Position numbers and translations under genes: made by a program. A stretch of DNA of 63,290 nucleotides, filler included, from Clostridia bacterium (GTDB taxonomy: Bacteria; CBDUZB01; JAGLHV01): NCBI GenBank assembly GCA_030637025.1. It is 4 parts of 4 records of this genome, joined end to end, with 100 filler letters (N's around TTAATTAATTAA, not from the genome) between each part and the next. Parts side by side here need not be neighbours in the genome. Positions count along the whole stretch, not along the records: positions 1 to 27,063 come from DAOVVV010000034.1; 3 more parts are not named here. The stretch is one strand, 5' to 3'. Of this stretch, positions 1-27,163 are shown one piece after another (position 1 is the first letter of the stretch; each line of letters begins with the position of its first letter). The notes beneath the pieces were generated by a model. The model was not told the origin of the DNA, ran no database searches, and saw nothing but the letters and a program-made list of their open reading frames with translations.

Positions 1-2321
1 AAGCGATAAAAGAAGTATCTATGCCGGAAGTTATGTTGGAGCTAAGCAAGGTAAGAGGAATAAAAGAGGCAGATATAAAGCAGTTAAGTATTGATACGGT
101 CAAAGAAATAACAGCGATATACGAAGGTAAAGCAGTTGTGGCAGCGGAGGGAAAGGTTTTTAAGGAAGTAGAAGTAAGCAGAGGCATACAGAATAATTTA
201 GGTTTGGATATATCCGGCCGTGAGTATCAGACGGGAATAGGGGATATAGCGCAGATAGTTTATGGCGGGGACATATCGCAGACGGTTTATAGCGGGAAGG
301 CGGGTACAGGAATCATCCCGAAGGTTTTATTGGAGATAAAGCAGATAGAAAGAAGTGGGAATATAGCAGTGAATATAGTTACGACTTCGGAAGGGAAAGC
401 AGTAATAGTCTTAAGTGTAAAAGAAGGAGTGAAGTTTAAAGTTAAAACGGTGAAGGAAGCTTTGAGCAATGTTAATGTTCGGGAGGTAATAGTAGATGTT
501 TCGTGTTTAAATAGGAGTGAGATAAAACAAGTGGAAGCAGAAGTAGTCAGAATAATAAATTTAAACAAGGATAAGCAGATTACCTTAATTTCCGAAACTC
601 AAGGGGAAATAGTAGTCCGGGTGTTTAATAATAAAAACATAAAAGGGGAAGTATGCCGTTTGCCGGAAAATGTTATGAACAATTTAAGATTGGACATAGA
701 AAATAATAATTATAAACAGGGATTAACAGATGTTGTTGATATCGTTTCTAATCAGGGAAAAGGGATAAATCGTCCTGTGGATATAACTATAAATTATGCG
801 AAAAATTTAGAGTCGAAAGGGTTGATTGTAAATCCAATAAATCCCAGAAAGGGTGTATTGGCTGTGACTACAAAGGGAAAAGTTTTTGATTTGGGAGCGA
901 TGGAAGAAGTTTTAGGTATTCCGGCCAGAGAGATAATTGTAGATTTTGCTAATATAAAAAGTAACAGGCAGCGGCAAAAAATTCAGGAAATGATAGTAGA
1001 AGCAAGAAATAATGATATAAATAAACAGATTACATTAATAGATACTTCCATAAAAGGAAAAGAGGGAATTATAAATTCTGACAATCATAATATTAATAAA
1101 CTTAATTTGCAGAAGGCAGAGGTTTTTATTCAGAATATAAGGGATGGATTAAAGATGAGGGAAATTGCTTTAATATTTAAAGATAGGGTTGTTGTAGAGG
1201 CTAAAACACCGGCAGGGACTATCTCACCAAAAACTCCAGGGGTTGGTGTTAATGCTGCTATGGCAGGGGTTCTGGGTGGAATAACGGCTTTTACCAGATT
1301 AGATGATTTAAAACAACTTCTTTTGGGTAAAGAAACGGGTATTACTATGGATATTTTAGAAGTAAAGGGTAAAATTAGCATGCTTAAACTCAAAGCAGCA
1401 ATTGATACAATTGATTTTAAATGGATAGAGGAAGAAAAAAAATGGCCTAACATAATACAATCGTTGGTGAAAACAGTTGTCCTTAATAGACGGGCAAGAG
1501 GTACTGTTTTGATAGAAGGACAGAAAAGGGTAGTAGCCATTTGCGGGGAAATATTGGCGAAATTACCGGTAGAGAGACATTCTGAAGCTTTACAAATGGC
1601 CCGGGATATTGATATATCACAAAATCGTTTTACTTTTCCTCACTTGAAAGAGGTTGCCAAAACGCTGGGAATGAAGACAATAATATTAAAAGATACGGCA
1701 AGTGAAAGTAAGCAGTTTAAGCAAATAAAGAAAATGGGAGATAGAACTTCTGATCCGATACTTATAACTATGCCGGGTCAACAAGTAAATGTTCAAGAAC
1801 GAATAAATAACTTGAAGAATAGGTTTCATGAAGAAGGTTATATGGATAAATCATTTGAAGGCGGGTTAGTAGTAACCAGCAGTAATCCGATAGTGATATC
1901 TTCAGATGTTAAAAATGTAGGAGTAGATTTTATGAACGCCTTACAGAAAAATATAGAGATAGCTGCCAGGAAAGGGTTTCAGGTGAGTAATGTTCAAGTG
2001 AAAGTAATAACTAAAGAAGGTTCTAAACAACAAGAGGTAATGAAGGCTCTTGAAGAAGATTTAAAGCAGGCAGGAATGAAGATTATTCCCAGATTTAGAG
2101 ATAAAACCAGGATTATTGTTTCTCAGATAAATAAACAAACTATGGCTAATCTTGTTCAAAACAAGGGGGGTATTAAGGTGGCAGATGCTCAACCACCAAT
2201 ACCATATATACCGGTACTTACTGATCATAAAGAATGGACCTCTAGAAAAGGGCCGAAAAATGTTTATATACTTAATGTCCCTGATATAGGGGGAATTACC
2301 GCAATAATCGGGTCTAATTAA
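1..2321 (+). CDS. C-terminal part of a large hypothetical protein (5'-truncated by window edge)
   Basis: Frame is open upstream of the ATG at 21 to the window edge (gcg ata aaa gaa gta tct atg). At least 766 aa, no recognised family. Internal repeat VREVIVDVS...KDKQITLI / AREIIVDFA...INKQITLI. Confidence 0.8.
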   Translation, partial: AIKEVSMPEVMLELSKVRGIKEADIKQLSIDTVKEITAIYEGKAVVAAEGKVFKEVEVSRGIQNNLGLDISGREYQTGIGDIAQIVYGGDISQTVYSGKAGTGIIPKVLLEIKQIERSGNIAVNIVTTSEGKAVIVLSVKEGVKFKVKTVKEALSNVNVREVIVDVSCLNRSEIKQVEAEVVRIINLNKDKQITLISETQGEIVVRVFNNKNIKGEVCRLPENVMNNLRLDIENNNYKQGLTDVVDIVSNQGKGINRPVDITINYAKNLESKGLIVNPINPRKGVLAVTTKGKVFDLGAMEEVLGIPAREIIVDFANIKSNRQRQKIQEMIVEARNNDINKQITLIDTSIKGKEGIINSDNHNINKLNLQKAEVFIQNIRDGLKMREIALIFKDRVVVEAKTPAGTISPKTPGVGVNAAMAGVLGGITAFTRLDDLKQLLLGKETGITMDILEVKGKISMLKLKAAIDTIDFKWIEEEKKWPNIIQSLVKTVVLNRRARGTVLIEGQKRVVAICGEILAKLPVERHSEALQMARDIDISQNRFTFPHLKEVAKTLGMKTIILKDTASESKQFKQIKKMGDRTSDPILITMPGQQVNVQERINNLKNRFHEEGYMDKSFEGGLVVTSSNPIVISSDVKNVGVDFMNALQKNIEIAARKGFQVSNVQVKVITKEGSKQQEVMKALEEDLKQAGMKIIPRFRDKTRIIVSQINKQTMANLVQNKGGIKVADAQPPIPYIPVLTDHKEWTSRKGPKNVYILNVPDIGGITAIIGSN

Positions 2322-2443
2322 ATGCGGCTTTAATTAAATATTTAAATCTATTAATCAAATACTCGCGCTTTCTCGGGGAGAAGTGAAGGGTCTAATAAAT
2401 GAAAGAAGGGTTAATTTTTTTTTCAGTTAAAGGTGAATAATAA

Positions 2444-3526
2444 ATGTTAAAATTGACTAAAAAAGAAAATAGTTTATTTTTTAAATTAATGGTAATAATG
2501 GTGATTTCTTCTTTTATGGTTACCTCTGTTCCTGAATATAGTTGGGCACATTTAAGCGGGATATTAATTACTGATTTTATTTCTTCTCAAAAGGTAGTGG
2601 GTGATTTATATCGTTTACCCCAACAGAGCAAATTGATTTTTCCTTCCTTTTTTATGCAACAAATAAACAATGAAGATTTAAAAAAAGAAATAAAACAAGC
2701 GGTTAATTTTATTTATATTAGCAGGAAATTATCCGGAGAAAATAATAAACTGTTTAATACTCAAGTATGTTTAAAGGGTATAAATGAAAAAATATATGCC
2801 ACAGCAGAAGAAAGCTCAAAAATTATCACAAAATTTTGCGAGCTTCATTTAAACGGTATTAAAAAATCTTTTAATTTAAGGTTGGAAAATAATTTTTTAC
2901 TAAAATATATAAAACCAATCTTTTTTAGTCCGAATTTGTCTTTGAATAAATGGGAAGACAATCTGATTATGCTTAAAAAGCTGGGATTGCCGGTAAATAT
3001 TTTGACTGTTTTATTTGGGGAAAGGATTTTTCTTTGTTCTTCACGATATGTGCTTCAAACAAAAAAAAGACTTGTTCTTAAGGGAAAAAAAAGGATAAAA
3101 CAAAAAACAAAAATAAAAGAATGGAAAAATAGAAATAATTTTTGTTTAAACAATTTTATTTTAACGGCTTTAAAGAATTCAAATAGTAAGAATAAATATA
3201 TTATTAATTTACCTCAGGGGATAAGGGGTTCTCCTAAAACAAGCATAATAAAAAAGATTAATCAACCGGAGGCAAAAGACGAAGAAGAAGGGGTTTTTCT
3301 GCAGTCAAAACAAATCTTTAGAAATTCAAAATTTCATTTATTTTTTAAGAGTATAACTAAACACACAAAAAGTATATTAAATAATTTTCCAAAAGCAAAC
3401 CAAATCATTAATAATAAATTCCAGAAAAAAATAACCATAAAATTTAAATACTTCCTGCATCAGCCAGGGAGTATTTTTAATATTAAATATAAAATTACTG
3501 ATTTATTTTTAAAAGGTAGATCATAA
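2444..3526 (+). CDS. Signal-peptide-bearing basic hypothetical protein with SecM-like GIRGSP motif
   Basis: SD-like aaggtg upstream. N-terminus KLMVIMVISSFMVTSVPEYSWA looks like a signal peptide. Body is K/N/I/F-rich. PQGIRGSP at 3212-3235. Confidence 0.65.
   Translation: MLKLTKKENSLFFKLMVIMVISSFMVTSVPEYSWAHLSGILITDFISSQKVVGDLYRLPQQSKLIFPSFFMQQINNEDLKKEIKQAVNFIYISRKLSGENNKLFNTQVCLKGINEKIYATAEESSKIITKFCELHLNGIKKSFNLRLENNFLLKYIKPIFFSPNLSLNKWEDNLIMLKKLGLPVNILTVLFGERIFLCSSRYVLQTKKRLVLKGKKRIKQKTKIKEWKNRNNFCLNNFILTALKNSNSKNKYIINLPQGIRGSPKTSIIKKINQPEAKDEEEGVFLQSKQIFRNSKFHLFFKSITKHTKSILNNFPKANQIINNKFQKKITIKFKYFLHQPGSIFNIKYKITDLFLKGRS
3446..3478 (+). terminator. Terminator/attenuator-like hairpin upstream of the giant gene
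   Basis: aaatacttcctg-catcagc-cagggagtattt (12-bp stem, one G:U) running into a T tract. Confidence 0.35.
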
Positions 3527-3542
3527 ATTCGGGAGGACGGAA

Positions 3543-6500
3543 ATGTCTTTGATTCAAGGTGCGGACGGAAAATATAGATCGTGGATTAAAATAGTGGCAG
3601 GGTTAACTTTGAGTTTTTTTATTGCTACTTTTTTACCAAATTATGCGTATGCTCAGGTGTCAATGTTGCCGCAGGCTATACCTTCGGATATGGCTTTGAA
3701 AGAGGTAATGATTAATCCTGAAAAATTAAAAGTTCCTACCAGTTTTGGTAAAATTGTAGATACTCATTGCGGGAAAGGCGATAAATTACTTATTTATATT
3801 CAGGATTTACATACTAATTATGAAGTGCAAACCAATATTTATAGTATTCTGGAAAATTTAACCGAAACTTACGATTTAAAGATAGTCGCCACAGAAGGAA
3901 CACAGGGAGAAATTGATACCTCCCTGCTTTCTACCTTTCCTTTGAAGAAAGTGAAAAAAGAAGTGGTGGAATTTTTTATGAGGAGGGGAGAAATAACCGG
4001 GCCGGAGTGTCTTTCTATAATGGGTCAAAAACCCCCTATTTTGTATGGTGTGGAAAAAAAGGAGTTATATCTTAAAAACTTAGGTTTGTATAAAAGTTCC
4101 CTGGATAGTAGAAAAAAATTGAGGGAATCATTAATTTCATTAGATAAAATAATTAAAGTTCTCCAGCAACAAATTTATTCTCCTGAAATTTTAAGATTAG
4201 TGGAAAAGGTTTCTTTGTATCAGAAAAACGAAATTTCTGTGGTTGATTTTGTTGGTTATTTGCAGGAAAGAGCTAAAGATACCAAGATAAATATAGAAAA
4301 AAGATTTAAAAATTTAGCGATATTAATAAAATTAATCCATTTAAGACAAAAATTAAATTCCGGTAAGAGCTTACAAATAGAAACAATGGCCATAGTATCA
4401 AGACTTTATGCAGTGATGAACGTTACGGAAATAAGAGGGTTGACCCGCAGAAGCCAGGAAAGCAAGGATTTAGAAAGTTATTATTTGTATTTAGAGAACT
4501 TAGCTAAGAAATATAAAGTTGATTTAAAATATTATTTTCCTTATTTAGCCAGTTATTTTGAATATATGGAACTTTCTCGCGGATTGAATAGTGTGAAGTT
4601 AGTAGAGGAGCAAATAAAATTAGTAGATGAATTGATTAATTTCTGGTGCAGGAATAAAGAAGAGAGAGAAATTATTCATTTGAGTAAAGTAATTGAAACA
4701 ATGAAGAAATTCATTGATATAAAGATGACCGGATGGGATATTGAATATTATCTAAAAAATAAGAAATTTTTTGACCGGGATAGAATTATAAATTTCTTAA
4801 AGAAAGAAATAAGAAAATATAAAAAGGAACCTTCTTCTGATATGCCTCCCGATGCTCTTCCTATGATTCTTGGCCGCTATGATTTGAATGAATTAGATGA
4901 TATACCGGATTTTAAAGAAGTCCTTACTACCAGTGAAGAATATTATGCTACCGCAGTTGGTAGAAATAAGTTCCTCCTGGAAAATAGTTTAAAAAAGATG
5001 GAGGCAGAAGAAAATTCCGTAATTGCTCTGGTTACCGGAGGTTTTCATACCCCGGGAATAACCAAACTGGCTAAAGAAAAAGGCCTTTCTTATGTGGTTG
5101 TTTCTCCGAATGTTACTCAGGCAGTAGATAGTAAGAGATATTTTGCTCTTTTAGAAGGGAAGGAAACCCCGTATAAAGATTTATTACTGGAACAAAGTGA
5201 ACTTTTACTTGCTCTTGCTTCCAAATTTATCGGTAAGGAATTTACCAGAAAGATAGCTTTTCTGATTACTAATTCCTTGATTAAAATGTATAAAAATAAA
5301 GATTGGTCAATGGAGGATATAAAAACTGAAATTGAAAATGTTTTTAACCGGACAAATGTGGAAAATGTGGAAAATTCTAAATTTCAGTTTCAGTGGGTAG
5401 AGGAATTAACCCAAAAAGATACAACCAGGGAAGTATATTCATTTAAGGTATTTGAAAATGACACCATAAAAAATGAGGGGATAAAAAGTATTTTGGCAAG
5501 CCGTATAATTATAGAAGGGGAAAAGAGATGGGAGACTAACTTTATAGATTCAAAAGAAGCTGAGGGGAATTTATCTGAAATAAAAATGGAAAAGATAAGA
5601 ATACAGAATTCCCTTAGAGGCCAGTTAGGTTTGTGGATTAGTGGTTCAATTAATTTCTTGAAAAGGGGCATGCAGATGCAATATTTTATGCATCTGGCAG
5701 GAAGAGTACAGGAAAGGGTTAAACAACAAATTATCGCCCAGGGAACCCTGGTTAACCTGGTTAAAAATACCTCCGCTTTACTTTTTTCTGCCTCGGCAGA
5801 TGTTGTTCTGGTAAAAGAAGAAATGATTGCTGAAGTACCTGGAGTGGAAGAAAAAGTGGGTGAGGTAAAAGTAGTGGAAGCGGAAGTTCCTGATGTAGAA
5901 GTGGCTGAAGTGCCGGATGTAAAAGTAGTAGAAGTTCCTGAAGTGGCAGAGAAAGTAGATGAAGTGGTGGAAGTAGTACCGCTGATTATACCTGTTATGA
6001 CTACCAGAGAATTGGGTAATGTTTCTTCTTTATATCAGGTAAAAGACCTTTATCAACAGCCCCTGCAGGATTTTCATGTTCCACCTTCTACCATTTCTGA
6101 GCAGGAGATGAGAGTAGAGGCAGAACAGGGTAAAATACTTATTCAACAGGGGAAATTTAATATTCTTAAACGTATTTCTCAGGCAAGAGGAATGAGGCTG
6201 GAAGGATATATTGAAGAATACGCCGTGGGAAAAATAAAGGGACGGCAAAATATGGCTAAAATACTTTCCGGAGTAATAATTAATCTGTTTCAATCTCTGG
6301 AAAATAAACTTAGTTCATCTAAAAAGGAATACTGGGATATTTTAGAAAAAATCAGTCAGGGGGAAATGGATTTTAATTCGGAGGAATTTTGGAATTTTAT
6401 GGCGGGAAATGACAACAGTGCGGAAATTTGGAAACTTATGCGTAGCGAAATAGCTAAGGCTTATGGTGCGGAAATATGGGCTAAAGAAAAAAATATTTCG

Positions 6501-9500
6501 ATAGAACAAGCAGAGCAGGAGATTTTAAAAGAAGTATTAAGCCCGATGGTGGATGGATTAACTGAGGAAATTAAAGCTGATTTAAGGCAGACAGGAGGAG
6601 AATTTACCGATAGTATTTTATATAAAGCACAGCTTAATCTTGATTTTGCTTATATGATTGATAATGCTGCTTTTGCCAAGGGTTTATATGAGGTGCAGGA
6701 TTTAGCGGCTGCTTATATGGCTAAAGATGGCGGTAGCTTTGTGGAAGTGCGTACGGGTGGAGGTAAGACCCTGATTGGTATGTTACCGGCTTATTTGATA
6801 GCCCTTAAAGGGGAAACTTGTCTTTTTATAACTAGAGATGCTACTCTGGTAAATCAATTTATAAAAGATAACCAAAATATTGCAGCTATTTTAGGGGTTG
6901 ATATGGAAGGATTCCTGAGGGAAGGTTCTGAAAATGTCAAAAAAGCGGATACCCCGGAAATTCAGCGTGAAATATTGAATGTTACTCCGGAAAATCAGGC
7001 AATAAGGAGAGGAAAGATTGTAGTTACTACTAGCCCTGATGTAGCTTTTACCGTGGGTTCGGATATGAAACTGAGTGAAAATGAAAAGGTTTTTCCCAAA
7101 GAATTTATATTTAATTTAATTTTTGATGAAGTAGATATGTCCGCAGCAACCCAGGCTACTATGGCTTATGTAGAAGCTTTGATGGCTGAGCCCCTCAACA
7201 AAGGGGAATTAAAAAGAGGTGTTTTTGCCGATTGGCTGGCTGTAGAATTAATCGGAGAAGGCGTAGATGAAATTCATAAAGCAGTAATAAAAGCTTATGA
7301 AAAAGGAGAAGAGCGTGAATTTTTGACTAAAGGAGGATTGGTACGAATTAATCTAACTGCGGGCAGAAAGGGCAGTCTAACGATAGCTCCGGAGGCAGAA
7401 TCTGTAATTAAGCAGTGTTATGATACGGCCCAGGAACAGGGATTAAGTTTAGGTAAATATAAAAAGTTCAGACAGATGGTAGAAGATCAGCTTACTGCTC
7501 AACTTTTACGAAAGAGTGATGAACAGTATGCATTTGAGAAAGTGGACGGTCAAATAGAAAGCAAATGTATTGAACCGGCTACAGGTGCCCGGACTAATCA
7601 ACGGGAACAAAGGATTCAGACTGCTATAGAAATTAAAGAATATAGAGCGGGAAATTTTAAGGGACAGGTCCTGGGAGAATCTCAGACCAATAATAGCCTT
7701 ACCATTCATTCTCTTATTGCTTTGGCTGTTAAATCGGGTGGTTTGGTGACGGGAATGAGCGGAACTTTCGGTAAGACAGTAACGGATGAGTTAGCTAAAA
7801 TAACAGGGAAAAAACTTTCACAGATCGGAATAGAGGTTCCTAGTCATTATGAAAGTGTGGTTGTAGACGAGGGTTTTATTTCCGGGGATACGGATTCTTC
7901 TACTATGGAAAGTATTATTAATTGGATTACTATGATAAAGAATGACAGAAAAGGGGCACCGATGTTGATGGCTTTAAATTCGGACAATACTACCCAGTGG
8001 ATAATAGAACAGATTAAAGAAGCGGTTAGTCTGGAGAAGTTTGCTTACAAAAATATTAAAGTGATTGGAGCAGAAACTGTTGTGGAGAAAATGGAAGAAC
8101 TGGAGCAGAACCGTTCTTCAGACACCTTGTTTGTTTATACGGTTACTGCTGCGACTACTGATTCCCAGATAGAACATATTCGTAAATATGGCGGACAGCC
8201 GGATACTTTACTTATCGGAGGAAAGACTATCGGGCGGGGTTTTGATGCTGGTTTTAAGACCATTAATGTTGAAGAAATCGGTCAACAGATAAAAACGATG
8301 TTGTTCGAAGCAGGAATATTCGAAGCAGAAATAGCGGAGGAAAAAGCAGCGGGTATTATTTTATTAATGGAAGAAATGCTCAATGATTTAAGAGCTGAGC
8401 GAAATATGGATATACGAAAAGAAAAAATTGAAAATATTAAAACATATTTTGATACAGTGCGTAATTTGTTAAAAGAAGGGGGAGTTAGCCTGGAGGTATT
8501 AGCTGAGTTTGAAACAATGGAACGACGGATATTTGCCCGGGAAGTATATGGTTTTCAGGGAGTTAATCAGTGTGATGATCTAACTTCTGGAGAAAGACGT
8601 CAAAGACAAGGACGGGTTGGCCGTCAAAGTGAGGCCGGTTCGACATGCGAATTAGTTTGTTATCAAAAAGGAGAAAGTAAATTTGGTGATATGATAGATT
8701 TTGAACGGGGGATAGAAGCTCCGTTGGGTGGAGTAATGGAAATGGGTAACGTCTTTAAATCTTTGTTAGCCGGAAAAATTAGTTTAAAAGAAACGTTTAT
8801 TCAGTTTGCACAAACTTCGTTTGTAGATAAATTGAAAGGATTTATATTGGGTGAAAATTCCGCTGAAGCGGCTTTTCGCAGGATGAATAGTTTAATAAAA
8901 GAATACAAACAACTTATTCAAGATCAAGGGAAAATAATAGAAAAAATTAAAGTCTCAGTCGGAGAGCAGGAAAAATCAGAATTAGAGCAACAATTAAAGG
9001 ACGTAAATGGAAAGATGGCAGGGATTAATAAGAAAGCAATTGCCCTTAAAATATATGCAGTAGATAGATTAGAAAGAAGTGATTCCCACTACCGTTTAGC
9101 TACCAGAAAGCGTAGTCTTTTTGCTACCCGGGTTTATGAAAAAATAGAAAAGTCCCGTAAGAATATTCTTAAAGCGGAAGTTACTAAATTAAACATTATT
9201 CAGCGTATTATTCAGGGTTTAAGGATAAGACAATTTTTTAGCCAGGAAGCTTTAGTCAGATTATTTATTAAAGATGAAATTAAGGATTACCGCAAAATGG
9301 CTAAAGAGATAGAAGATCCGGTTAAACGCAGTGAAATTTATCAACAGATGATTAGCCGTTTGGAAAAAGGATTAAATATAAAAGAAGGTGAACTTGCTGC
9401 GGAGTTGACTGAGGAAGCGTTGTTGTTTAAAAAATTAAAGACGAAAAAACTGGTAAATATGATTACGGAAAAGCTTATTGAGCAGAGGGGAGAGGAAAAT

Positions 9501-12500
9501 ATTTTTTATGTCGATGAACAAACCAATACCGGTGTTCTGGATGATGCTTTTAATTCGGTTAAAGCCCAGTATATCAGCTATGCGGAAAGCCAGCAGCACA
9601 AGAATATGGCTGTTCCTCTGCTTGCGGAGTTAATTAAAGTACAAATTTATAAAATAATACTCACTTATCGTTATCAAAGGGATATGCGCAGGATTGTTTC
9701 CCGGATGAGCCAGACAATGAGAGAGGGATTGGATAAAACCATAGAGACGGAAAGTTTGGGTAAAAAAAATATGGAAGTAGATGTAAATGCAGTTATTAGG
9801 AATGTTTCCGCAGGGATGACCGATGCTTTGAAAATAAGTGAATTAATGGCCGGTAAAGAAGAACGCAGTTTAAAAACACGGGTAGGAAAGGGTTTAGATA
9901 ACGCGGCTAAATTGTTTGCTGATTTTATGTGGCGAGCCCGGGGAAGATTATTAGGTGAAATTAAAGAACGGGTAGTTACCGTAGCGGAAAAGCGTGAAAT
10001 GGCGGCAGGTATACCCATGGTAATGGGACAGGCAGGTAAATCCCATACCGGAATAAAGGTTGCTGATTATAGAAAGGTGAATACTGACCAGATAGAGCGA
10101 GAAAAAGAATGGATGGAAAATAATCAAGTAACCCTGGATTTACAAGCTGGCTTAAAAGCAGAGGGATTTTTTGTGACTATGCCGGAAGAAAAAGTAGCAG
10201 AGGTAGCAGAAGAAAAACCAGTGGAAGTAGAAAAACCCGCAGAGGTAGTTACAGAAGTTCCTGGTGAGGGTCCTGAGATTCCCGAGGAAATCGTTCCTTT
10301 TGATACTAAAATAATTGCTCATTTTCAGGGGGAGACTGACCAAATAAATAAAGATTTGAATAATATTCAAACAGCTATTGAGGGGTTAGATATAGAGTTA
10401 GAAACAGAGGAAGTTAATAAAGTTTATCAGCAATTAAGTGAAATTCGGACAAAGATTTCCAGCTTAAGGCGCGAATATAAAACTATGGAAGTACCGGAAG
10501 ATTTAAGCAAAGATATTCAGTCATCATTAGAAAAAATAGGGACGGTTATCAGTACTCTGGATAATCAGGCAATTAAATTAAATAATGAATTGGATGATAA
10601 AACCGGAGCCCACATAGTTCCTTCCCGTTTTGATGTAAAGAATATTATTAGAAAAATTGACGGGAGGGTTTTAACTTTTACTCAAAATCTTGCTTCAAGC
10701 AAATTAGGCAAACCGGTTTTTGGACTTTCTTTAGGGGTGGTATTTGCCGGGTTTCTTTTTATTCTTTTTAATGGTTTATCTTTTGGTATGTTGCCTATTT
10801 TAGCTTTAGTTTTTACTCCGCTAACTATTTTATTTTCTTTCTTTAAAAAGGAGTCGGGAACTACTTTTCCTGCCCAGCCTAAAAAAGGAGCATTGGGTAA
10901 ATTAATGAATATTAGTGAAAAAGTTAAAGAGGTTATTGGCGGTACTCCCGGAAAGCCGGCTTCATGGACTAACCTTTTTATTTCAGGAATAACTTTAATT
11001 GCTTTCGGAATTAGTTTAGGTTTTGGCCCGGCTGTTCTTTTAACTGCAGGAACAGCTGTTTCTGCCGGAGTAAGTATGATGGGTTTTGGGTTCAGTCCTA
11101 TAATCTTCATTTTTATAACCAATGCTATATTACAGAAAACCAAATTTCTGGATAAGCTTGCCGATAAAATAAGCGGCCTGTTAGGTATTCGTAAAGCAAA
11201 AATAGAAAACAAAAAAGGCTTTGAAAATCTGAGATTACGGATGGAAGAAAATATTCGCCAAAACAAGGAAAATGTTCCTTTACCAATAGAACAGTTAGAA
11301 AAACAGGCAAGGATTATTGCTTTTGGGGGGGAGGAAATAGCGGAGGAAAAATTAACCCCGGCAATGAAGGAACAGTACCGGAATGTTCTCAAAGGTTTGG
11401 AAACATATTGGCGCAGTGTGGAAAGAGAGCTTTTGAAAGAAGCAATTAGTCAAAGTGAAAAAGATATTTCTCATGCGGCTGAGGTAAATAAAGCGGTAAA
11501 CGATGAGGCAATTGCCGCTTTTTGTGGTTTGAGAGTGAATTTCCAAAGAATTAAAGAAAAAAAGACATTACGACCCGATAATGAAAAATTAGAAGAGTTC
11601 GCTGTACAAATAGCTGCAGCTGAATTGGAAAAAGATGTTTCAGTAGGGGTGGTAAATGCCCGAGTTGAGGAGGTTCTGCCATATTTAAAAGAATATTGGT
11701 TTGAGGCTGAAGAGGAGGTCTTAACCGGGAAAATTGCTCAGGCTAAAGCAGATTTGGGTAATATAGTAAAAATAGCCGGAGAAGAGCAATTGGAATTAAT
11801 TGCTTCCAACGCTGTTCAACGTGCCCGGGCAGGGGAAAATGCACAAGCTTTAGAGTTATTGCAACAACGATTTGAAGAAAACAGAAAAATTTCTCAGCTT
11901 ACTCCCCAAAAATTAGCAAAAAGGCAAAAAACAATATGGGCAAACGTTGCCCTTAAATTGGGGTATCAACCGGGAGAAGAACTTTATCTCCAAATAAATA
12001 AGGCTTTACAACAATACTGGGTAAGTATAGAAGGGGAATTATTGCAATCAGCCATTAAACAAAGCCAGGAAGATATTACCCGTGCTTCTGCATTAAACAA
12101 AGCAGTAAATGATGTGGCTATTGCTGCTGTTTGCGGATTAGAAACCAGTCTGGAAAGAAGCCGGCAGAAAGAAACCTTACCTTCTGCGGAACAATTACAA
12201 AAACTAGCCGTAGATATAGTTAATGTTGAACTTAAGGAAGATGTTTCAGCTCAGGAAAGAAATGCCCGAATAGTAGAAGTGGTTCAATATTTAAAAATGT
12301 ACTGGTTTGATGCTCAACAAAAGCTTTTATCCAAAAGAATTGCTCTGGCAAGGGGGGATCTGGATAATATTGTAGACATAGCTAAAGCCCCTCAGGAAGA
12401 GTTAATTGCTCAATATGCCAGTCAGCTGGCACAGGCAAAAGAAGGGGTTGCCTTAAAAGAAAAAATAAAAAGATTAGCTACTTATATTGAACAGGAATTA

Positions 12501-15500
12501 GCTGAGTGGTCCATTCAAACAGAACTAGAGTTTATTTCAAAATCACAGGAAGATTTAATTGCTTTAGTAAACAAAGCAGAATATTTAACCGATAAAACAA
12601 AAGAAAATCATATTAACCAAATTAATCAAAAAGTTGCTCAGTTAGAGCAAGCAAGAACAGTACAACCGGAGGAAACGGTAGAGGAAGTAGTAACACCAGC
12701 GGAAGTAGATGTGAAAAAGAAAGTAACTATTGCACAGATTATAGGGGATGTTTTTGATGGGGCTTTGCGTCCATTCAATGCTTTGCATTGGGAAATAGAA
12801 GAGGGGGTAGTAGATGCGATTATTGCCGGACTGGGGTTAAAGCAAAAGGAGGTTAGCTTAACGGCAAAGCAAAGAGAAAAGGTAGTTAATGCCCTGGAAT
12901 TATTAAAAAGAGAATTTCCGGAATTGGAAAATAAAGAATTATCCGGTGCTATACAAAAAGAATTGGATGGGTTAATTAATAATCCGGAAGAGTTGAAAGT
13001 AGTCGAAGGTAAGTGGTTTATTATGGATGAGTCTAATACGCTTAAAGCCTGGGTAGGGGCATTTTTAAATGGACCGTATGTATTTATTTTAAAGGCCATG
13101 ATTAAAGGAGCGACAGAAAAACAATTAGCCGGGGCTATCTTACATGAGTTGTTGGAAGTGCAGGGAATAGAGCATGAGCCGGCAAAAAAAATTGTAGATA
13201 GGTTTATAGTCGGTGAGGAAGCTATTGAAGAACGGATGGAAAAGATTGCAATACTGGAGGCGGCAGGTTTTAAAACAACTAATCAAGAGATATTAAAATT
13301 AAGTATAAAGGAAATAAAGGAAAGAATTGCTCTTTTAAATGAATTAAAAGAATCAGGAGTAAAAGTATCGATTGGTTGGTTAACATATGCGCCGGTTACA
13401 TTGAAAGAGTGGGTAGAAGCGTTGGTGGAAATGGGTATTACTTATGCTCAGATTACTTCGAAGTTAATTATTATTCAGAGTTATATCCAGCGGCTGGCTG
13501 AAGGAGAAGATGTTGGGGAAGAACTAAATAATAAAATTGTCCGGTTAAGTGAACAGCCGGAAAATGAACAGATAGTAAATAAGTTGAAGGGAAGAGTTCA
13601 GCAGCTAATTCCTGAAGCAGTGGAAAAAGTCGAAGATGATATTGAAGAGATAAAAAATAAGATAAAAAGTTTGCCGGACGAAGAAAAACATTATATCCCA
13701 ATAACAATATCAGACACGAAAGATGTTAAATTTCTTTTAACCCGGGAAGATTATGCGGCGGGGATGAAAGTAAGTGAAGGGGGCATGCTTAGTTTATTAA
13801 GTAAAGCATTAAGCCTGGAGAAAGAATTATATTTTGGTATATATTATGAGCCATTAAATGAAGAAATTGTATTATCACTTCTTGACCAACCCCACTATTT
13901 CTCCGAGGAGCATGGGAAGAATGGTTTTATCGGAATAAACAAATCCATAGTTGAAATCAAAGATGAAAAAATACGCAATATAGTTTTGATAGTAGCTTTA
14001 ATGCACGAGTTAAGGTATGAAGTAACCGGGCGGGATGACGATGCTTTTGAGCAGGAACAATTAGCCTGGGACATTCAATTGACCCTTTCTTTATTAAATG
14101 AAGAAGGAATTTTATTAGATGATTATATTAAGACACTGGGATTATTAGATAAAGAAACTCCGTATTTAAGAGGACTGCAACAATTTCCTTATAAATATTT
14201 TGTAGAAGTATTATCAAGGACATTTGAAAGAGATGAAACTATTATCGGACAAATATTTGATAATTTTTCCGGGGATATTAATTTTGAAAAATTAACGGAA
14301 AATATTTTTAAAATGATTAAGGAATTAGAAACATTAACCGATATTGAAAAAACTGATCTTGATAAATATGAAAAATTCTCCCGGCTTTCTCTGGAAATGT
14401 TGGTAGCCATTGTACCGGCTTTGAAAGAAAACTGTCAACAACTGGATAGAGTAATAAAAGGAAAAGTAAAACCGGCAAAGGTAGATATTATTGAATTAGT
14501 TGATTCAGTAATAGAGGCAAATAAAATAAGTAATGTTAATGTATTATTACCTGAGGGGGATAATTTACCCCAAATAGAGGGATTTAGTGATTACATAGAA
14601 CAAACATTAGTTGAATTAATAACTAATGCTAATGAACATGGGGCAAGAAATATCGAGGTAACTATTTTAAAAGCCATACATCCCCAGACTAGAGAAGAAG
14701 GGATCCAAATTAAAATAAAAGATGATGGGAGGGGGATTAATTCTGAAGATCAAAAAAATATATTTAACAAGGGATTCAGGGGTGATGTAGAAGTTGGGGA
14801 AGGAAAGAAAATTACGGGTACAGGGTTAGGTTTGCATTATGCTAAAAGATTTATAGAAGAGTTATACCGGGGGGATATTAGGGTCAGTAGTGAAGGCAGG
14901 GATATTAATAAATGGGAAGCAGGGAAGGGAAATGGAAGTACCTTTAATTTGACTTTATTTGATATCGACAAGGAACGGGATTATCAAGAATATCGCTATG
15001 AGCTTGTTGTTTCTATAATTCATAATATAGGTAACAATCTCACCGTTTTAAAAGAATCTGCTGCAATGTTATATGAAAGTAAAGAAGATGATAAATTGTT
15101 TTTAGGGATAAAAAACAAGGTGGAAGACATTATTACCTACATAAAAATATTTATGGTAATGAGAGATCAAACTACTTTAAAAACGAGGCTTGAAGAAACA
15201 TGGAAAGAAGAACCGGTAACGGAAAAAAGATTTCCATTTATAGCTTTAACCTCTTTCTTAGTAAGTATATTTAGTGTGTTTGGACTTGTTGGTATAGCTA
15301 TGGCAGAATCGGGAGTTGTAACAAATGTTGTTTCCGGAATATCTTTATTAGGGATAAGTGTACCGGGGATAGTAATTGGAGGTATAGGTATAGCTCTGGG
15401 TGTATTAGGGTTGAGATGGATACTAAAAAGGATAAAGGAAAGAGCGGATAAAGAAAGAATAAAAATAGAAGCACCCCCGGTCATTGAAAAGCTCAGTAAC

Positions 15501-18500
15501 GAAGAAGCAGGAGCAATAGTTAATAATGCGGCTATTCTAAGTAATAAGGAAAGAGCTTATAATGAGGATATAGATGTTTTGCCTGTAAAAGTTAGGCCAA
15601 AAGAAATGAGAGAATTATTAAAGAGTGAAGTATTTCGGCCAAAATATCAATATAAAATTGGCAAATATACGATTTATTTATCCAATTCTTATAAGAGTGA
15701 TAAAATTACCGACCGGGAGTCAGTTGTAGCATATATTAAAAGTCCGGACGGTAAAATTGTAATAAGGTCTTTTTACTGCTCTTTATCTTTAGGATTGTGG
15801 CATAGTGCCAGTCATTTTGGGCAGCCCGGAAGCCCTTTATGGATTGGAAAAGGTATGACAGCTTTTAAATTTTCTACTCAGTTACCAATACAGATGCAAA
15901 AGGTGCTTTTTGATATTCGTTCTCAAGTTGGGTTTGCTCAAGAAGTCAGCGGAGAGGAAGCAAAGAAAGTTTTTTACGGTGCGTTACAATATTTAATTCC
16001 TACAGAATACGAAAAAGAATTGGAAGGAATTTCTGAAGGAATTAGAGACATGATCAGAGATGTGCCTGAAAGTAGAAAAGTATTGGATTCTCAAAAAGGA
16101 ATGCACATAAAACCGGAAGATTTAAAGATTAAAAGTAAAAAACTTAGACCGGATTTCAGTAAATTAATAACCAGATTTGAAGTCAGGTTAAATCCGGAAC
16201 TTTATAAAGAGGGAATAGGTGAAGCCTATGTTTTTTATTCTAACGATAAAAAATTACAGTATCTGTTTTTAAGGGATACTTCCGGGAATGTGTGGTTGGG
16301 AACGATTGATTTTATAGAGGAGGATATTAACAATTTTGGGATAAGAAGGGTTATGTATAATCCTCTTGATTTAAGTAAACCGCCGTACGAATATTATGAC
16401 AATATTCCGGAGGGATATATAGGAGAACGGAAATCTGGAAGTTATTATGAGGTTATAAATTATCATCGTAACGTTTCGATTTTAAATGAAGCGAAGAAAG
16501 TGATAGAAGAGAGAAGTAAAGAAAGAACATGGGATGAATGGAAGAATATTTTCCGGGGAGAGGGTGTTGAAATTATACAAATGGAACCTGTTAGTGTTGA
16601 TGGTTCTGAAGTTTTAACAGAGGGAGATGCCCGGAGAAGACTGGCAACATATACTTTGGAAATAGATGCAGATAAAATCACCGCAATCGAAAAAATATTT
16701 GAAGAAATCGCAGTAATTGAAAAATACATTTCAGAAATTAAACAAAAGAACGTGAAGGAAATAGCAGCAGATTATAAGTCGTGGAATATAGATAAATTAG
16801 AAAATAAATTAAATGAAATTTTAAAAACGGGTAAACTGGATGATAAAGATTTAGACAAAAAAGTATTAGAAGAAGTTAAAGTAAATATAGATAAAATTAA
16901 ACAAATTAAAAATAGCATTAACCATGAATTAAATGTTAATCGGATTAAAACAATTGAGCAAGAAATAGAAAAAATCAGTAAACAAATTAGTGAAGAAATC
17001 AGTAAAGAATCGGAGTTTGTTTATTTAATGGATGTTAATGCTTTTAATAAATTCAACGAAACACTGGAAACAATCGATAGTAAAAGGCTGGAACTTATAA
17101 ATGTTAAAAAGCCCTTATTAGAAGAAAGTAGCATTCAGCAATTAAGGGAGTTTAGAAATCGCGTTAGGGATGAAAAAAGGTTGATAAAACAAAGCCTTGA
17201 CCTTTCTGTTGATGAACGGCAAATATTTATTGGCTGGTACTTATTTAATGAATATTATGAATTATATAAGGAAGACGATAAGCATGAGCAATTAATGCAA
17301 AATGTTAAGTTTGTTGAAAGATTAATTGCCTTAAATAAAGAAAATGATATTCCGGCAAAAGAAAAAGAATTATTTGCTTTGATTAGTGAGTTAAGAGCCA
17401 GAGGTATAAATGAGGAAATTTATAAGCAGGTGCAGAAAGTTAGAGCAAGGCATATAGAGCAAAAACAATCAGTTCAGGATTCTTTAAATATCATGATCAA
17501 TCAAATGAATGTAATAAGCGGTCAGCCGGAAGAATTATTACGGGATTTAAAAAGTAAGGAATCTACGGTAAAAGTTTTAGAGGAAAAAGCATTAGTTGAA
17601 TTTAAAAGTGATTCGGAAAAATTTGCTTTGTTTAGTAAAAAGAAAACTATTTCGAAAGTTGGAAAAGATGATTACTTTCAGCAACACCTGGCCACACATG
17701 CTAAACATTTTTTCGGAGAGGCAGAGCCGCTTAATGCAAGGCAATATAGAGAACTTATTGAGCAAATAAAACAAAAAGCGGATATGTGGTTTATCTCTTT
17801 TGATGAAAATGGAGTAAAAAGATATAACTATTATGAACAGGGACATAATGTTTTATTAATAATAACAGAATACAGAGACTCAAATCCATTATTTATAAGT
17901 TGTTATCCGGTTACTTCCGATAGAGTGGGAGAGCTTTTAAAGAGAGAAAAAACCTATGTTGTATCTGATTTGAGGGAAGAAAAAGAACCGGTAAAGGGGA
18001 AAAGATTTTCTACTACAGTCTTAATTTTTTTATTAGTAAGCATAGTCAGTTTTTTTGGACTTGGTGGTATAGCCATTGCAGAATCGGAAGGTTTAACAGG
18101 TGTTGTTTCCGGAATATCTTTATTAGGGGCAAGTTTACCCTGGATAGGAATTGGATTATTAGGTATAGGGATGGATGTATTGGGGTTGATATGGATGCGA
18201 GAAAGGATAAAGGCTCTACCTACATTTTTGACTCCAAAAATAATTGCTGGGTTCGGAGGAGGTATTGGGAGGATTGAGAAAAAATTAATAAGGGTTTCTA
18301 TTGCTATGAATACAAGGTCAGAAGATGAAGAGAGTGAAAATAAAATAATTAGTGGAATGTATAAAAATTTGAAGAAAATTCAGACTCAAATTTCCGCACT
18401 TAACCGTAAATATCAGGCTGTAGAAATTCCCGCGGGTGTGAGTGAAGAACTTAAGGAGGCATTTAAAGATATTGGAGTTAGATTAACTAATGTCAATAAT

Positions 18501-21500
18501 CAGGCAATTGACTTAAATAGGCAGCTTGATGAAAGAAGAGGACCTATAGAAGTTAAGCCCCCGGTCGAAAAAGAAGTGAAAGTCAAGCCGGAAGTTGTTA
18601 CTACCGAGATAAAAGATTTGGTGAAAAAATTTTATGTAACAGGTTTACTTTTGGGAATATATATTCTTGGTTCCTTCATATTACTTCCCGGATTTAATAG
18701 CGCAGTTCCGGAGCAAATGAATTTGTTTTCTTTTTTCTTTAAAATATCTTTAGAAATGTTAACCGAGCAAGGGGATGTTGTCGGATTAATATCTCTTTTT
18801 TCCGGTGGAAGTATGGCTTCTATTTTTGCTATGGGTCTGTTGCCGTATTTTCTTGCTTCCACGGCAATTCAATTAGGAAGCTTTGTTTTTCCGGGAATAA
18901 AGAGAAGGATAAGCCAGGGAGATGCGGGAAAAGAACGACTGGAAAAATATACCCGATATTTAGCTTTAGGGATAGCAGTTTTTCAGGCGATAATAATGGT
19001 GAATTACTTAATGCCTTTTATGGTAGGTGCGGCATTAATACTTAAATTATCTACGGCTGTATCTTTAATTGTCGGGACTGCTTTTATTATGGGGATAAGC
19101 GAGCAAATAGGAAAAAGAGGCCTGGTTAAAAGAGGCAGTTTACTGGTAATAAGTGTAGGGATGTTAACCAGTATGGTATTTACTTTATTTAGCGGTCCTA
19201 TAGCAATGGCTGCGATATTTTTCGTAGCAATTGCCGTTCCTTTAGCTATAGTTATTCATAAGGTGCATTATAAAATTCCGGTCAGATTTGCTCCGCTTGC
19301 CCGTAAGGAAGCGAAAGAGAAGATGGGGTTTTTGCCTTTAAAGCTGGATACTGCCGGGGTAAGTGCGATTATTATTACTATGTCTTTTCTGATGGTAGGA
19401 TCGATGATTTCTACTGTTTTTATGGGGGCAGGGGCTATTACTATTGGGCCGAATTTAATGACCGCTATTACAGGGATAATGATATTTTTCTTTTCTTATG
19501 TAGGTACGACCAGGGTACAGATGAATGTAAAAGATCTGGTCAAGGATTTTTTACGGGGAGGAAAAATCATTCCCGGTGTTGCCCCTGGTGTGCAAACAGG
19601 GGAATACATAAAAAAGACAATAAATAGAGTGGGGTTTTTAGGTGCTTTATTGGTTACTGCCATTACTATTGCCCCAGCGGCGTTAGGGATTGGGACTTAT
19701 GCTTTAGGAATGACTATTTTAATTTCCACTCTGGTTTTCTTAGAAATTTTCAATCAGATAAGGGTTGCCTGGTCCAGTTTAAAAGTAGCTACACCCGAAG
19801 TGGTTGAAGCAGAAGAAACAGCGGAGAGGAAAAGCATCAAGTATTTAGTTGTGGCAGCAAGTGGATTATTGGGGCTGGTTAGTTTATTTTATTTAGCTTT
19901 ACCCTCTTTAGTAGACATACTTACCATGGAAATTACTTCCACACTTTTTCTGGTAGTAGGAACGGCTGTTTTGATGGGCGTGTTGTTTTTTAATTTAACT
20001 TCTTTCGGCCAACAGATTTTAAAAAACAGAGCCAGGAAAATATCTATACTCAGAGAGAAAGCAGACATAATAGATGTATTAAGGGAGAAGTATGCCGGAA
20101 AGAGCAATGAGCAATTATTGGCAGAAGCTGAGCGGTTAAGAGGGTTATTTACTCCTGAAATGACCGATGAAGAGGCGGTCAAAATACTGGAATCAATGGA
20201 CGAAGACGGTATACCGATTAAGCTGAAGGGTATTGCCTTAGCTATGACTAATATTGAACGAACTTCCCGGGAAAGTGCAGTGGAATCAGCTATTGAATGG
20301 TTAGAAAAAGATACAGAGTCGATGACGGATAAAGCAATAAAATTAGCCATTAAGCAGGCGAAGGGAAATAATGGGGAAGCATCCCAAAAAGTAGTAGATT
20401 TAGTTTTGTTTAAAATAAATAAAAAATTAGAGCAAAAGATAAGTGTACATGAAAGATTGAAATTAGAAGAAGAAATAGGAAAGATTGAGAGGAAATGGAA
20501 TTTCACTTTTAATCCCAATCAGGTATTTACTGCCCTGGCTTTGTTAGAGCGGGAAATTAAAGAAAAAACATTACTTGGTGATTGGTCAGGGAGGATACAG
20601 GGGTGGATTACTCCCAGCGACTTAATGCAGAAAATAGTAGGCAATTATGTTCAGCTACCCGGGGGAGAAGGGAAAACCCAGGTAGCTGCGAGTGCTTTAT
20701 TTACAGCATCTTTAGCCGGCCGGGGCAGTCAGTTATTAACATCGCATAAAAATCTGGCTAAGTCGCAAGGGAAAGAGATGGCTATGTGTTTAGCGCGTTT
20801 AGGGACCAGTGTGAGTGTTGTAGGAGCCGAGTATGATGAGCAGGGAAGGCAGGTGCATTATGTATATAAACTGAAAGAATTGGGTAAAGATAAGGTTAAG
20901 GTTGAATTGGTTAAAACTACTGATGTGGAAGTAGCTTATAATGAATGTGATATTACTTATAGTGATGAAGCTACGGCTAATCATCTAAGGCAGATGCACT
21001 TTTTAAATTTGCGTCCTTCTTTTTACGCTGCTTACGATGAAGGAGATGCGATTTTTAAAACTACTTCTCCCAGGAAAATATCCGCAGGAGCAGAAGGGGA
21101 AACATGGAGTAATGAGAATATAATTGCTTTAAGAAAACTCTTTTTAGAAGATGGATTAAGGGAAGGTGATTTTAAATTGGATTTCCGGGGGGATGGAAGG
21201 ATCAGGCTTACCGGAAATGGACAGGCTCAATTAAAGAGAATAATTAAAAATGAACAGCAAGCGGAAAAAATTATTAACTATTTCAGAGAAAATGGTTTAC
21301 CGGAAAAATTTGTTTTTGGGATGCTGGTAAAAAGGTTAAAACAAGCTCAGGAACGGAGAGAAGGGGAATATTTTAAGGTAAATTATGAGGAAAAAGAAGA
21401 AGTAGTAGAATTAACCTCTGCCGGCAGGGAGATAATCGAACGGAATTATTTAGGGCTTCCTTTAGATTTATCACTTACCCAGTTGGATATAATTCATTCC

Positions 21501-27063: not shown

Positions 27064-27163
27064 NNNNNNNNNNNNNNNNNNNNNNNNNNNNNNNNNNNNN
27101 NNNNNNNTTAATTAATTAANNNNNNNNNNNNNNNNNNNNNNNNNNNNNNNNNNNNNNNNNNNN
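27064..27163. other. Artificial contig spacer
   Basis: N-run, TTAATTAATTAA (stops in all six frames), N-run; 100 nt. Confidence 0.97.

Follow-up and report, generated by a model that had tools for sequence, protein, structure and literature searches.

Can the synthesis of a giant protein be linked to the export capacity of the cell that makes it? This question is raised by an open reading frame (ORF), hereafter P0001, found directly upstream of a giant gene with SecA and SecY domains in a 2.36-Mb metagenome-assembled genome of a Clostridia bacterium (GenBank assembly GCA_030637025.1, here G000; 77 contigs, 97.8% complete). The window, i.e. the whole stretch of DNA that was analysed, comprises 63,290 nucleotides (nt), and positions refer to it unless another locus is named. 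The initial annotation described P0001 as a SecM-like secretion monitor, with an N-terminal signal peptide and the sequence PQGIRGSP at 3212-3235. Both the ORF, ending 16 nt before the giant gene, and the motif are found where they had been placed, and the interpretation built on them is partly supported by our results. We tentatively favour the view that P0001 is a real, genus-restricted protein, exported or membrane-anchored and encoded in the same operon as the giant gene, and that its NLPQG[IV]RGSP motif is a translation pause site of the SecM/RAPP class. The three elements of this proposal are the following.

2444..3526, + strand: P0001 ORF, ATG start, 360 residues, stop codon ending at 3526
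3206..3235, + strand: conserved motif NLPQGIRGSP, residues 255-264; proposed stall with Ser263 in the P site and Pro264 in the A site
3543..27119, + strand: giant gene of 7858 codons, complete with its stop codon; the protein has a signal-like N-terminus of its own

Within the motif, PQGIRGSP corresponds to residues 257-264 and RGSP to residues 261-264. Its likeness to published SecM arrest cores, already remarked upon at the outset, is borne out: the arrest sequence of Escherichia coli SecM is FSTPVWISQAQGIRAGP, and the minimal arrest peptide of Mannheimia succiniciproducens SecM is HAPIRGSP, these eight residues being sufficient (PMC12526060). RGSP has served as a query motif for finding arrest peptides, its stalling having been demonstrated in M. 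succiniciproducens SecM (PMC10987492), and it belongs to the experimentally supported set of tetrapeptides of the R-x-x-P class (RAGP, RAPP, RAPG, RGSP and others) that defines RAPP-like arrest cores. A search of the 7605 six-frame ORFs of this genome with 60 residues or more (1,169,410 residues in total) gives a single occurrence of the extended pattern G[IV]R[AG][GS]P, for expected counts of 8e-5 in one 360-residue ORF and about 0.2 genome-wide.

The pattern of change among relatives points to selection on the peptide. NLPQG[IV]RGSP is kept in all four orthologs, the exchange between Ile and Val being the sole residue change, and its codons vary across the four species (Arg AGG/AGA, Gly GGT/GGA/GGC/GGG, Ser TCT/TCA/TCC). 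The eight motif codons show six synonymous changes and one conservative non-synonymous change (I/V), compared with 22 synonymous and 68 non-synonymous changes in the flanks (residues 218-256 and 265-316; Fisher p=0.002), these being counts of distinct codons and residues per column, for a window chosen post hoc and four non-independent species. When all 111 eight-codon windows in which the four sequences align are ranked by synonymous change with at most one residue change, the motif windows come first. A metagenome contig from another study (run X6) represents a fifth lineage; it spans 3053-3508 and shows 25 differences in these 456 nt. Its motif carries three changes, GGG>GGA, TCT>TCC and CCT>CCG, all of them synonymous, and the 30 differences listed across the ORF comprise 14 synonymous and 16 non-synonymous ones. 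The relatives carry 10 extra residues directly after the motif proline, and the linker before the motif is near-neutral, with ratios of non-synonymous to synonymous substitution rates (dN/dS) of 0.65-0.91 in windows over alignment columns 181-280. Because of the adjoining indel and this near-neutral linker, the pattern is that of a short linear motif and not of a fold element. By these sequence comparisons, the motif is thus a short peptide element under strong purifying selection within a loosely constrained region.

The same comparisons show what else in P0001 is maintained. Its dN/dS relative to the ortholog in the related genome G001 is 0.38 overall; the upstream gene gives 0.42 and the giant protein, over its first 2500 residues, 0.25. 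Beyond the motif, conserved islands include KTKIKEWKN and NQIINNKFQKKIT.KFKYFL. At synonymous sites, P0001 has diverged from G001 about half as far (synonymous rate dS 0.55) as its two neighbours (1.04 and 1.24), and a degree of nucleotide-level constraint on the ORF is therefore possible; the low dS may reflect RNA-level constraint or merely extreme AT-rich codon use.

P0001 is confined to a small group of bacteria. Orthologs were found in the three other genomes of the genus (G001, G002 and G003) and in none of 37 genomes outside it, i.e. in four of the 41 genomes searched; the GTDB phylum of this lineage comprises four genomes. A search of 5.8 billion proteins returned three matches, P0001 itself and two within-genus orthologs, and a five-sequence profile run against 1.84 billion representatives also gave three, two ortholog fragments and a paralog of 151 residues. 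For locus scans we used the N-terminus of the giant protein, which is better conserved (82-83% identity). It yielded 595 pattern matches but no relatives among JGI metagenome contigs, and three loci, from the same three species, among GTDB genome contigs. A degenerate DNA pattern for NLPQG[IV]RGSP matched metagenome contigs twice, both times out of frame with the listed ORFs, and we therefore regard both matches as chance. As for the giant protein, a search for a related SecY region among 2161 giant proteins (4321-13752 residues) gave no scored match; the orthologs are also absent from that set, which makes this result uninformative.

The features of P0001 and of its 5' end that can be read from the sequence are these.

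2431..2436, + strand: Shine-Dalgarno-like AGGTGA, read from the sequence, 7 nt 5' of the P0001 ATG
2444..2548, + strand: signal-peptide-like N-terminus, residues 1-35, by hydropathy; cut predicted after S-W-A
2963..3037, + strand: second, weaker hydrophobic stretch, residues 174-198, mean Kyte-Doolittle hydropathy 1.44-1.61 in 19-residue windows; candidate membrane segment
3044..3211, + strand: very basic, fast-evolving linker, residues 201-256, with 17 K+R and 1 D+E

An equivalent of the ribosome-binding site (RBS; AGGT[GA]A/GGGTGA) is also present in G001 and G003. The N-terminus has a K-rich start and a hydrophobic core at residues 11-29 (mean Kyte-Doolittle hydropathy 2.13). After the core comes S-W-A|H, in agreement with the -3/-1 rule, by which the cleavage site was placed. 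The proposal of an N-terminal signal is thereby borne out as a signal-type segment, which from hydropathy would be a signal peptide or a signal anchor. Its VTSVPEYSWAHLSG segment is identical across G000, G001 and G003. The remainder of the protein had been called a featureless basic body. P0001 is indeed basic, with a pI of 10.1 and 64 K+R for 23 D+E, and very rich in K, N, I and F, but featureless it is not, given its extensive conservation and the second hydrophobic stretch. Should residues 174-198 span the membrane, P0001 would be a two-pass membrane protein rather than a secreted one, and its motif would lie in the cytoplasm together with the C-terminal 160 residues.

Database and structure searches with P0001 gave little. 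No Pfam family was matched at E<=0.01, the best NCBIfam match was below threshold (E 0.012, 15 bits against a cut-off of 300), a profile search of the PDB gave no matches, and the ESM Atlas returned unnamed clusters only, with scores of at most 0.85. The AlphaFold2 model, built from a five-row alignment, has a mean predicted local distance difference test (pLDDT) score of 29.9 and is unusable, and no fold search was made with it. Among the 12 runs listed for the P0001 locus, none is an RNA run. A promoter scan gave 12 sites, compared with 7.4 expected in shuffled sequences, and none of them stands out.

The paralog of 151 residues is found at G000:C58:8661-8933 (-), corresponding to L008 1318-1773 (-). 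It shares 31% identity with P0001 over residues 1-93, the common part consisting of the signal peptide and about 55 further residues, and belongs to no Pfam family. Each of the four genomes has it; it follows an OmpA-like gene, has no gene after it and is not located upstream of any sec gene. By this alignment, P0001 and its paralog define a small, lineage-specific N-terminal domain.

Any effect of a pause on the giant gene would have to pass through the 3' end of P0001, where two elements are of interest.

3446..3486, + strand: terminator-like hairpin (3446-3476) and, 3' of it, TTTTTAATATT; both lie within the final 27 codons of P0001
3531..3537, + strand: Shine-Dalgarno (SD) sequence GGGAGGA of the giant gene, 5 nt past the P0001 stop codon

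The 16-nt gap between the stop codon of P0001 (3526) and the giant start (3543) thus contains the giant SD. In G002 and G003, the P0001 ORF crosses the SD and ATG of the giant gene and stops 10-16 nt inside it, so that the stop codon adjoins or falls inside the giant start region in three of the four species. This layout is typical of translationally coupled genes. The hairpin lies within the most nucleotide-conserved stretch of the ORF and is followed by a run of T. Its stems are nearly invariant and its loop is variable across species, with predicted energies of -14.3, -14.4 and -15.4 kcal/mol in three species and -7.5 kcal/mol in G003, owing to one mismatch. A strict terminator scan (at least 10 pairs, at most -12 kcal/mol) did not pick it up. 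A relaxed scan places it among 304 sites in the genome, of which 101 lie inside long ORFs and seven in their last 120 nt. As these sites are only about 1.3-fold enriched outside long ORFs, the case for a terminator role stays weak; the hairpin is unusual but not compelling, and we consider it a candidate terminator only.

The downstream gene was initially seen as a SecA/SecY gene, and its domain content agrees with this. Its modules, and the gene preceding P0001, are as follows.

3..2321, + strand: 3' part of a large upstream gene without known family, cut by the contig end; 122-nt gap to P0001
within 3543..27119, + strand: SecA_DEAD, giant residues 1038-1198, Pfam E 1.2e-10
within 3543..27119, + strand: HATPase_c, giant residues 3683-3805, Pfam E 3.6e-16
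within 3543..27119, + strand: SecY, giant residues 5093-5402, Pfam E 1.7e-44, full profile length
within 3543..27119, + strand: second SecA_DEAD, giant residues 5698-6118, Pfam E 8.2e-11
within 3543..27119, + strand: SecA_SW, giant residues 6429-6654, weak match of 23.6 bits for a Pfam cut-off of 26.7

Since a canonical SecY and an 894-residue SecA are encoded on other contigs of the same genome, the Sec modules of the giant protein are extra copies. Upstream of the canonical secA gene are two cold-shock genes and no leader ORF. The gene order, i.e. the large upstream gene, P0001 and the giant gene, is common to all four species. The upstream gene, which encodes at least 1500 residues in G001 (L015 1-4503) and matches no Pfam family in either genome, is thus a second large orphan gene preceding the giant one; its products are 42% identical between the two species, with a dS of 1.24. 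As for the remainder of the window, positions 1-27163 correspond to contig C25 and 27164-54860 to contig C27, which are not continuous DNA. Because the window joins contigs, the genes found further along it (among others, for a DinB-type polymerase, an M48 peptidase and a GGDEF response regulator) are not shown to be neighbours of the giant gene.

If the motif does pause translation, the following sequence of events can be envisaged. The N-terminal signal sequence would bring the nascent chain of P0001 to the translocon. Peptide-bond formation would slow down once Ser263 occupies the P site and Pro264 the A site, as it does at the IRGS/P of Mannheimia SecM and the RAG/P of E. coli SecM. About 228 residues would then separate the signal sequence from the peptidyl-transferase centre (from residue 36 to residue 264), and the pull of translocation could free the ribosome. 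The latter would translate the last 96 codons, through the hairpin, and terminate at the RBS of the giant gene, 16 nt before its ATG here and 10-16 nt past it in two relatives. The duration of the pause would set the number of ribosomes that reach the junction, and therefore giant expression would be linked to export capacity; it would also set how promptly they reach the hairpin and the junction. The link to the 23.6-kb gene would thus operate via coupling at the 3' end of P0001, and not via the unmasking of an SD by the stalled ribosome as in SecM. We rate the chances that ribosomes stall at the motif as about even, and export may release such a stall. That a pause in P0001 truly influences the giant gene, in either direction, is more doubtful.

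A number of observations weigh against a pause site that governs the giant gene. All the relatives found belong to one genus, which makes the conservation test shallow. The 25 RAPP-like tetrapeptide motifs of Fujiwara et al. have 75 matches in the ORFs of at least 50 residues of this genome, and RGSP is not depleted, with four occurrences in ORFs of at least 150 residues for about 3.9 expected from composition; for this reason, only the extended motif match carries weight. Moreover, the scan behind the motif covers very many windows, and a few chance matches are expected before the conservation test, so that the weight of the motif rests on its conservation. Motifs of the RAGP type are known from non-stalling proteins as well (PMC10951299). 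The Sec and YidC monitoring substrates described so far have their arrest motif near the C-terminus of a small ORF, although the screens that found them themselves required a C-terminal motif in a small ORF (PMC10987492, PMC12992588). In P0001, a protein of 360 residues, the motif is internal, at 96 codons from the stop codon and 296 nt from the giant SD, distances that the initial annotation had already given to a good approximation as a caveat. The expectation that relatives would conserve only the signal and the motif holds for the motif, in the four orthologs and the fifth lineage, but not for the restriction: residues 1-90 are conserved beyond the signal, with a dN/dS of about 0.15 over residues 1-80, a part shared with the paralog, and residues 317-348 are almost invariant among orthologs. 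The hairpin shows no compensatory change and is mismatched in one species, and hairpins like it turn up roughly every 18 kb on the coding strand. In G001, a repeat insertion of 279 nt (L002 2632-2910) separates the P0001 stop codon from the giant SD. Lastly, the downstream gene does not belong to the housekeeping Sec machinery, which lies elsewhere. With regard to the insertion itself, which is present in one species only, it contains two copies of a TGACGCCCGT[CT]GGAAAA module; in G000, several of its 14-mers are found 5-7 times each, and it probably represents an intergenic repeat module.

What else could P0001 be? The idea that it does not code for a protein at all, being a chance open frame in an AT-rich spacer or the 5' leader of the giant gene, draws on the lack of family matches, the very low pLDDT (30), the poor recognition in the ESM Atlas and the skewed K/N/I/F-rich composition. 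We find it scarcely credible, as the frame is open and syntenic in the four species with indels that keep the frame, the dN/dS values, 0.15 at the N-terminus and 0.38 overall, are those of a protein under constraint, the RBS is conserved, and the signal-peptide pattern is common to P0001 and its paralog. A far more serious contender, nearly as likely as a pause site, sees P0001 as an ordinary protein, exported or in the membrane, that serves the giant protein as a partner, for instance in assembly, anchoring or processing. The motif would then be kept for a non-ribosomal reason, possibly as a binding epitope, a processing site or a turn, and its likeness to SecM would be a coincidence. The constraint and layout of P0001 speak for such a role: a 360-residue ORF with several conserved islands other than the motif, an N-terminal domain with a paralog elsewhere in all four genomes, and, after what may be a second membrane segment, a positively charged run. 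So do the distance of the motif from the stop codon, the missing conserved link between motif and SD, the absence of RGSP depletion, and the RAGP-type motifs of non-stalling proteins mentioned above. However, a chance match of G[IV]R[AG][GS]P in P0001 is hardly expected, and this match falls in an ORF that also has a signal sequence and a downstream gene with Sec domains. Furthermore, no family, fold or non-ribosomal motif that would explain NLPQG[IV]RGSP was found in Pfam, NCBIfam, the ESM Atlas, the AlphaFold2 model or the PDB.

A pause site in an exported operon partner, which we retain as the best explanation, might act in more than one way. In a canonical switch of the SecM type, the stalled ribosome would melt a helix that masks the giant SD, and a secretion defect would raise giant translation. 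The motif, the signal sequence and the gene order are those of such a switch, and in this genome alone UUCUCCU, from the Gly-Ser-Pro codons of the motif, is complementary to GGGAGGA. This complementarity was rejected because synonymous changes in the relatives (TCA, TCC, GGA/GGC/GGG) break the pairing. Motif-to-SD pairing is not conserved: the SD is predicted to pair with a different partner in each of the four species, never one next to the motif. For 3200-3570, the predicted fold does not exceed shuffled sequences in stability (z = -0.71). In addition, a stalled ribosome covers only about 15 nt downstream, far short of the distance from the stall site to the SD, and the G001 insertion precedes the SD as well. 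A switch of this type is thus very improbable here. The layout fits a checkpoint better than SecM-style derepression, with a logic opposite to that of SecM. Arrest would occur inside the ORF, about 210 nt upstream of the terminator hairpin of the same ORF; upon export, the ribosome would resume, keep up with the polymerase, read through the hairpin and reach the giant start. Without export, it would stay behind, the hairpin would form or coupling would fail, and no giant protein would be made. The giant protein would therefore be produced only when export works; a pause might also keep the long mRNA at the membrane. We regard this specific scheme as improbable in its own right, if less so than the canonical switch.

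The interest of the locus extends beyond this genus. Export-sensing arrest peptides are known to be widespread, and those described are small leaders with the stall site at the very end. If the motif of P0001 stalls ribosomes, the class also occurs inside longer functional proteins, extends to a barely sampled lineage and can precede a giant self-exporting protein, with a costly gene controlled via coupling instead of SD unmasking. If it does not, P0001 is a cautionary case: a core almost identical to known arrest sequences, maintained by selection and in the 'right' context, would then cause no arrest. Non-exhaustive literature searches gave no paper on an arrest peptide before a giant gene.

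How does P0001 compare with known systems? E. coli SecM has about 170 residues, and its arrest motif lies about four codons from the stop codon. Like it, P0001 is a signal-bearing ORF directly upstream of a gene with SecA domains, and in both cases export is proposed to release the stall. The QGIR..P of P0001 is identical to the E. coli core at five of seven positions; when the two are aligned on the final proline, I156 of SecM is matched and F150 and W155 are unmatched. Unlike SecM, P0001 is a long protein with an internal motif, has no SD-masking helix adjoining the stall site, and precedes a multidomain gene of 7858 codons and not the housekeeping secA. It is not a SecM homologue: a six-frame search with PF06558 gave no match above the cut-off in the four genomes of the lineage, the E. 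coli control being positive, and P0001 has no Pfam family. The description as a SecM-like monitor thus survives for the motif, the signal and the gene context, and fails for the minimal leader, the link to the SD and membership of the SecM family. In M. succiniciproducens SecM, IRGSP, the last five of the eight sufficient residues, is identical; the three preceding residues are PQG in P0001 and HAP in that protein, and, as with E. coli SecM, the two differ in where the motif lies within the ORF and in the gene that follows.

The hairpin invites another comparison. The E. coli pyrBI leader-attenuator has its terminator hairpin within the translated leader, and termination is averted if the ribosome stays close behind the polymerase; the signal is UTP-dependent pausing of the polymerase. 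P0001 similarly has a terminator-like hairpin inside a translated ORF, but the proposed signal is a pause caused by the nascent chain, and the hairpin is only terminator-like. As for the giant protein, its closest known counterparts in design are the giants of Candidatus Omnitrophota, which are membrane-associated and have SecA DEAD-type domains in genomes that also encode a normal SecA; self-export has been suggested for them (West-Roberts et al., bioRxiv 10.1101/2023.11.21.568195). The present giant resembles them in having SecA DEAD-type domains besides a normal SecA. Those giants lack the SecA scaffold/wing domain and their SecYEG is separately encoded (bioRxiv 10.1101/2023.11.21.568195), whereas this one has a strong embedded SecY and a weak, sub-cut-off SecA_SW match; an embedded SecY channel may therefore be unusual. 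The passages of that preprint consulted describe no upstream leader ORF or arrest motif.

Set beside the four criteria of Fujiwara et al. (2024), P0001 is (i) an unannotated ORF that ends 16 nt before a gene encoding SecY and SecA domains, but this gene is a giant one rather than a canonical secA, secDF or yidC, and the ORF is not small; (ii) it has the N-terminal signal or transmembrane segment, on hydropathy only; (iii) its motif is conserved in the four orthologs but ends 96 residues before the C-terminus; and (iv) the spacer from signal to motif, for which more than 30 residues are called for, has about 228. Exposure of an SD by the stalled ribosome, a feature of monitoring substrates, is not found in P0001, in view of the differing SD partners and of the shuffle-like fold. 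Among the closest relatives in kind are the RAPP-like or 'RQH' arrest peptides (ApdA, ApdP, ApcA and relatives), which have in common an R-x-x-P-type core and no overall homology, carry an N-terminal localisation signal, show a patchy, lineage-specific distribution and are found upstream of localisation and other genes (PMC10987492; PMC12992588). P0001 shares with them the R-x-x-P core in the form of RGSP, the N-terminal signal and the lineage-specific occurrence; it differs in being long, with an internal motif and other conserved parts, where those peptides are small with a motif near the C-terminus. On sequence grounds, P0001 is thus a candidate RAPP-class export-sensing arrest peptide, which would be new in being internal, in residing in a long conserved protein and in preceding a giant gene with Sec domains.

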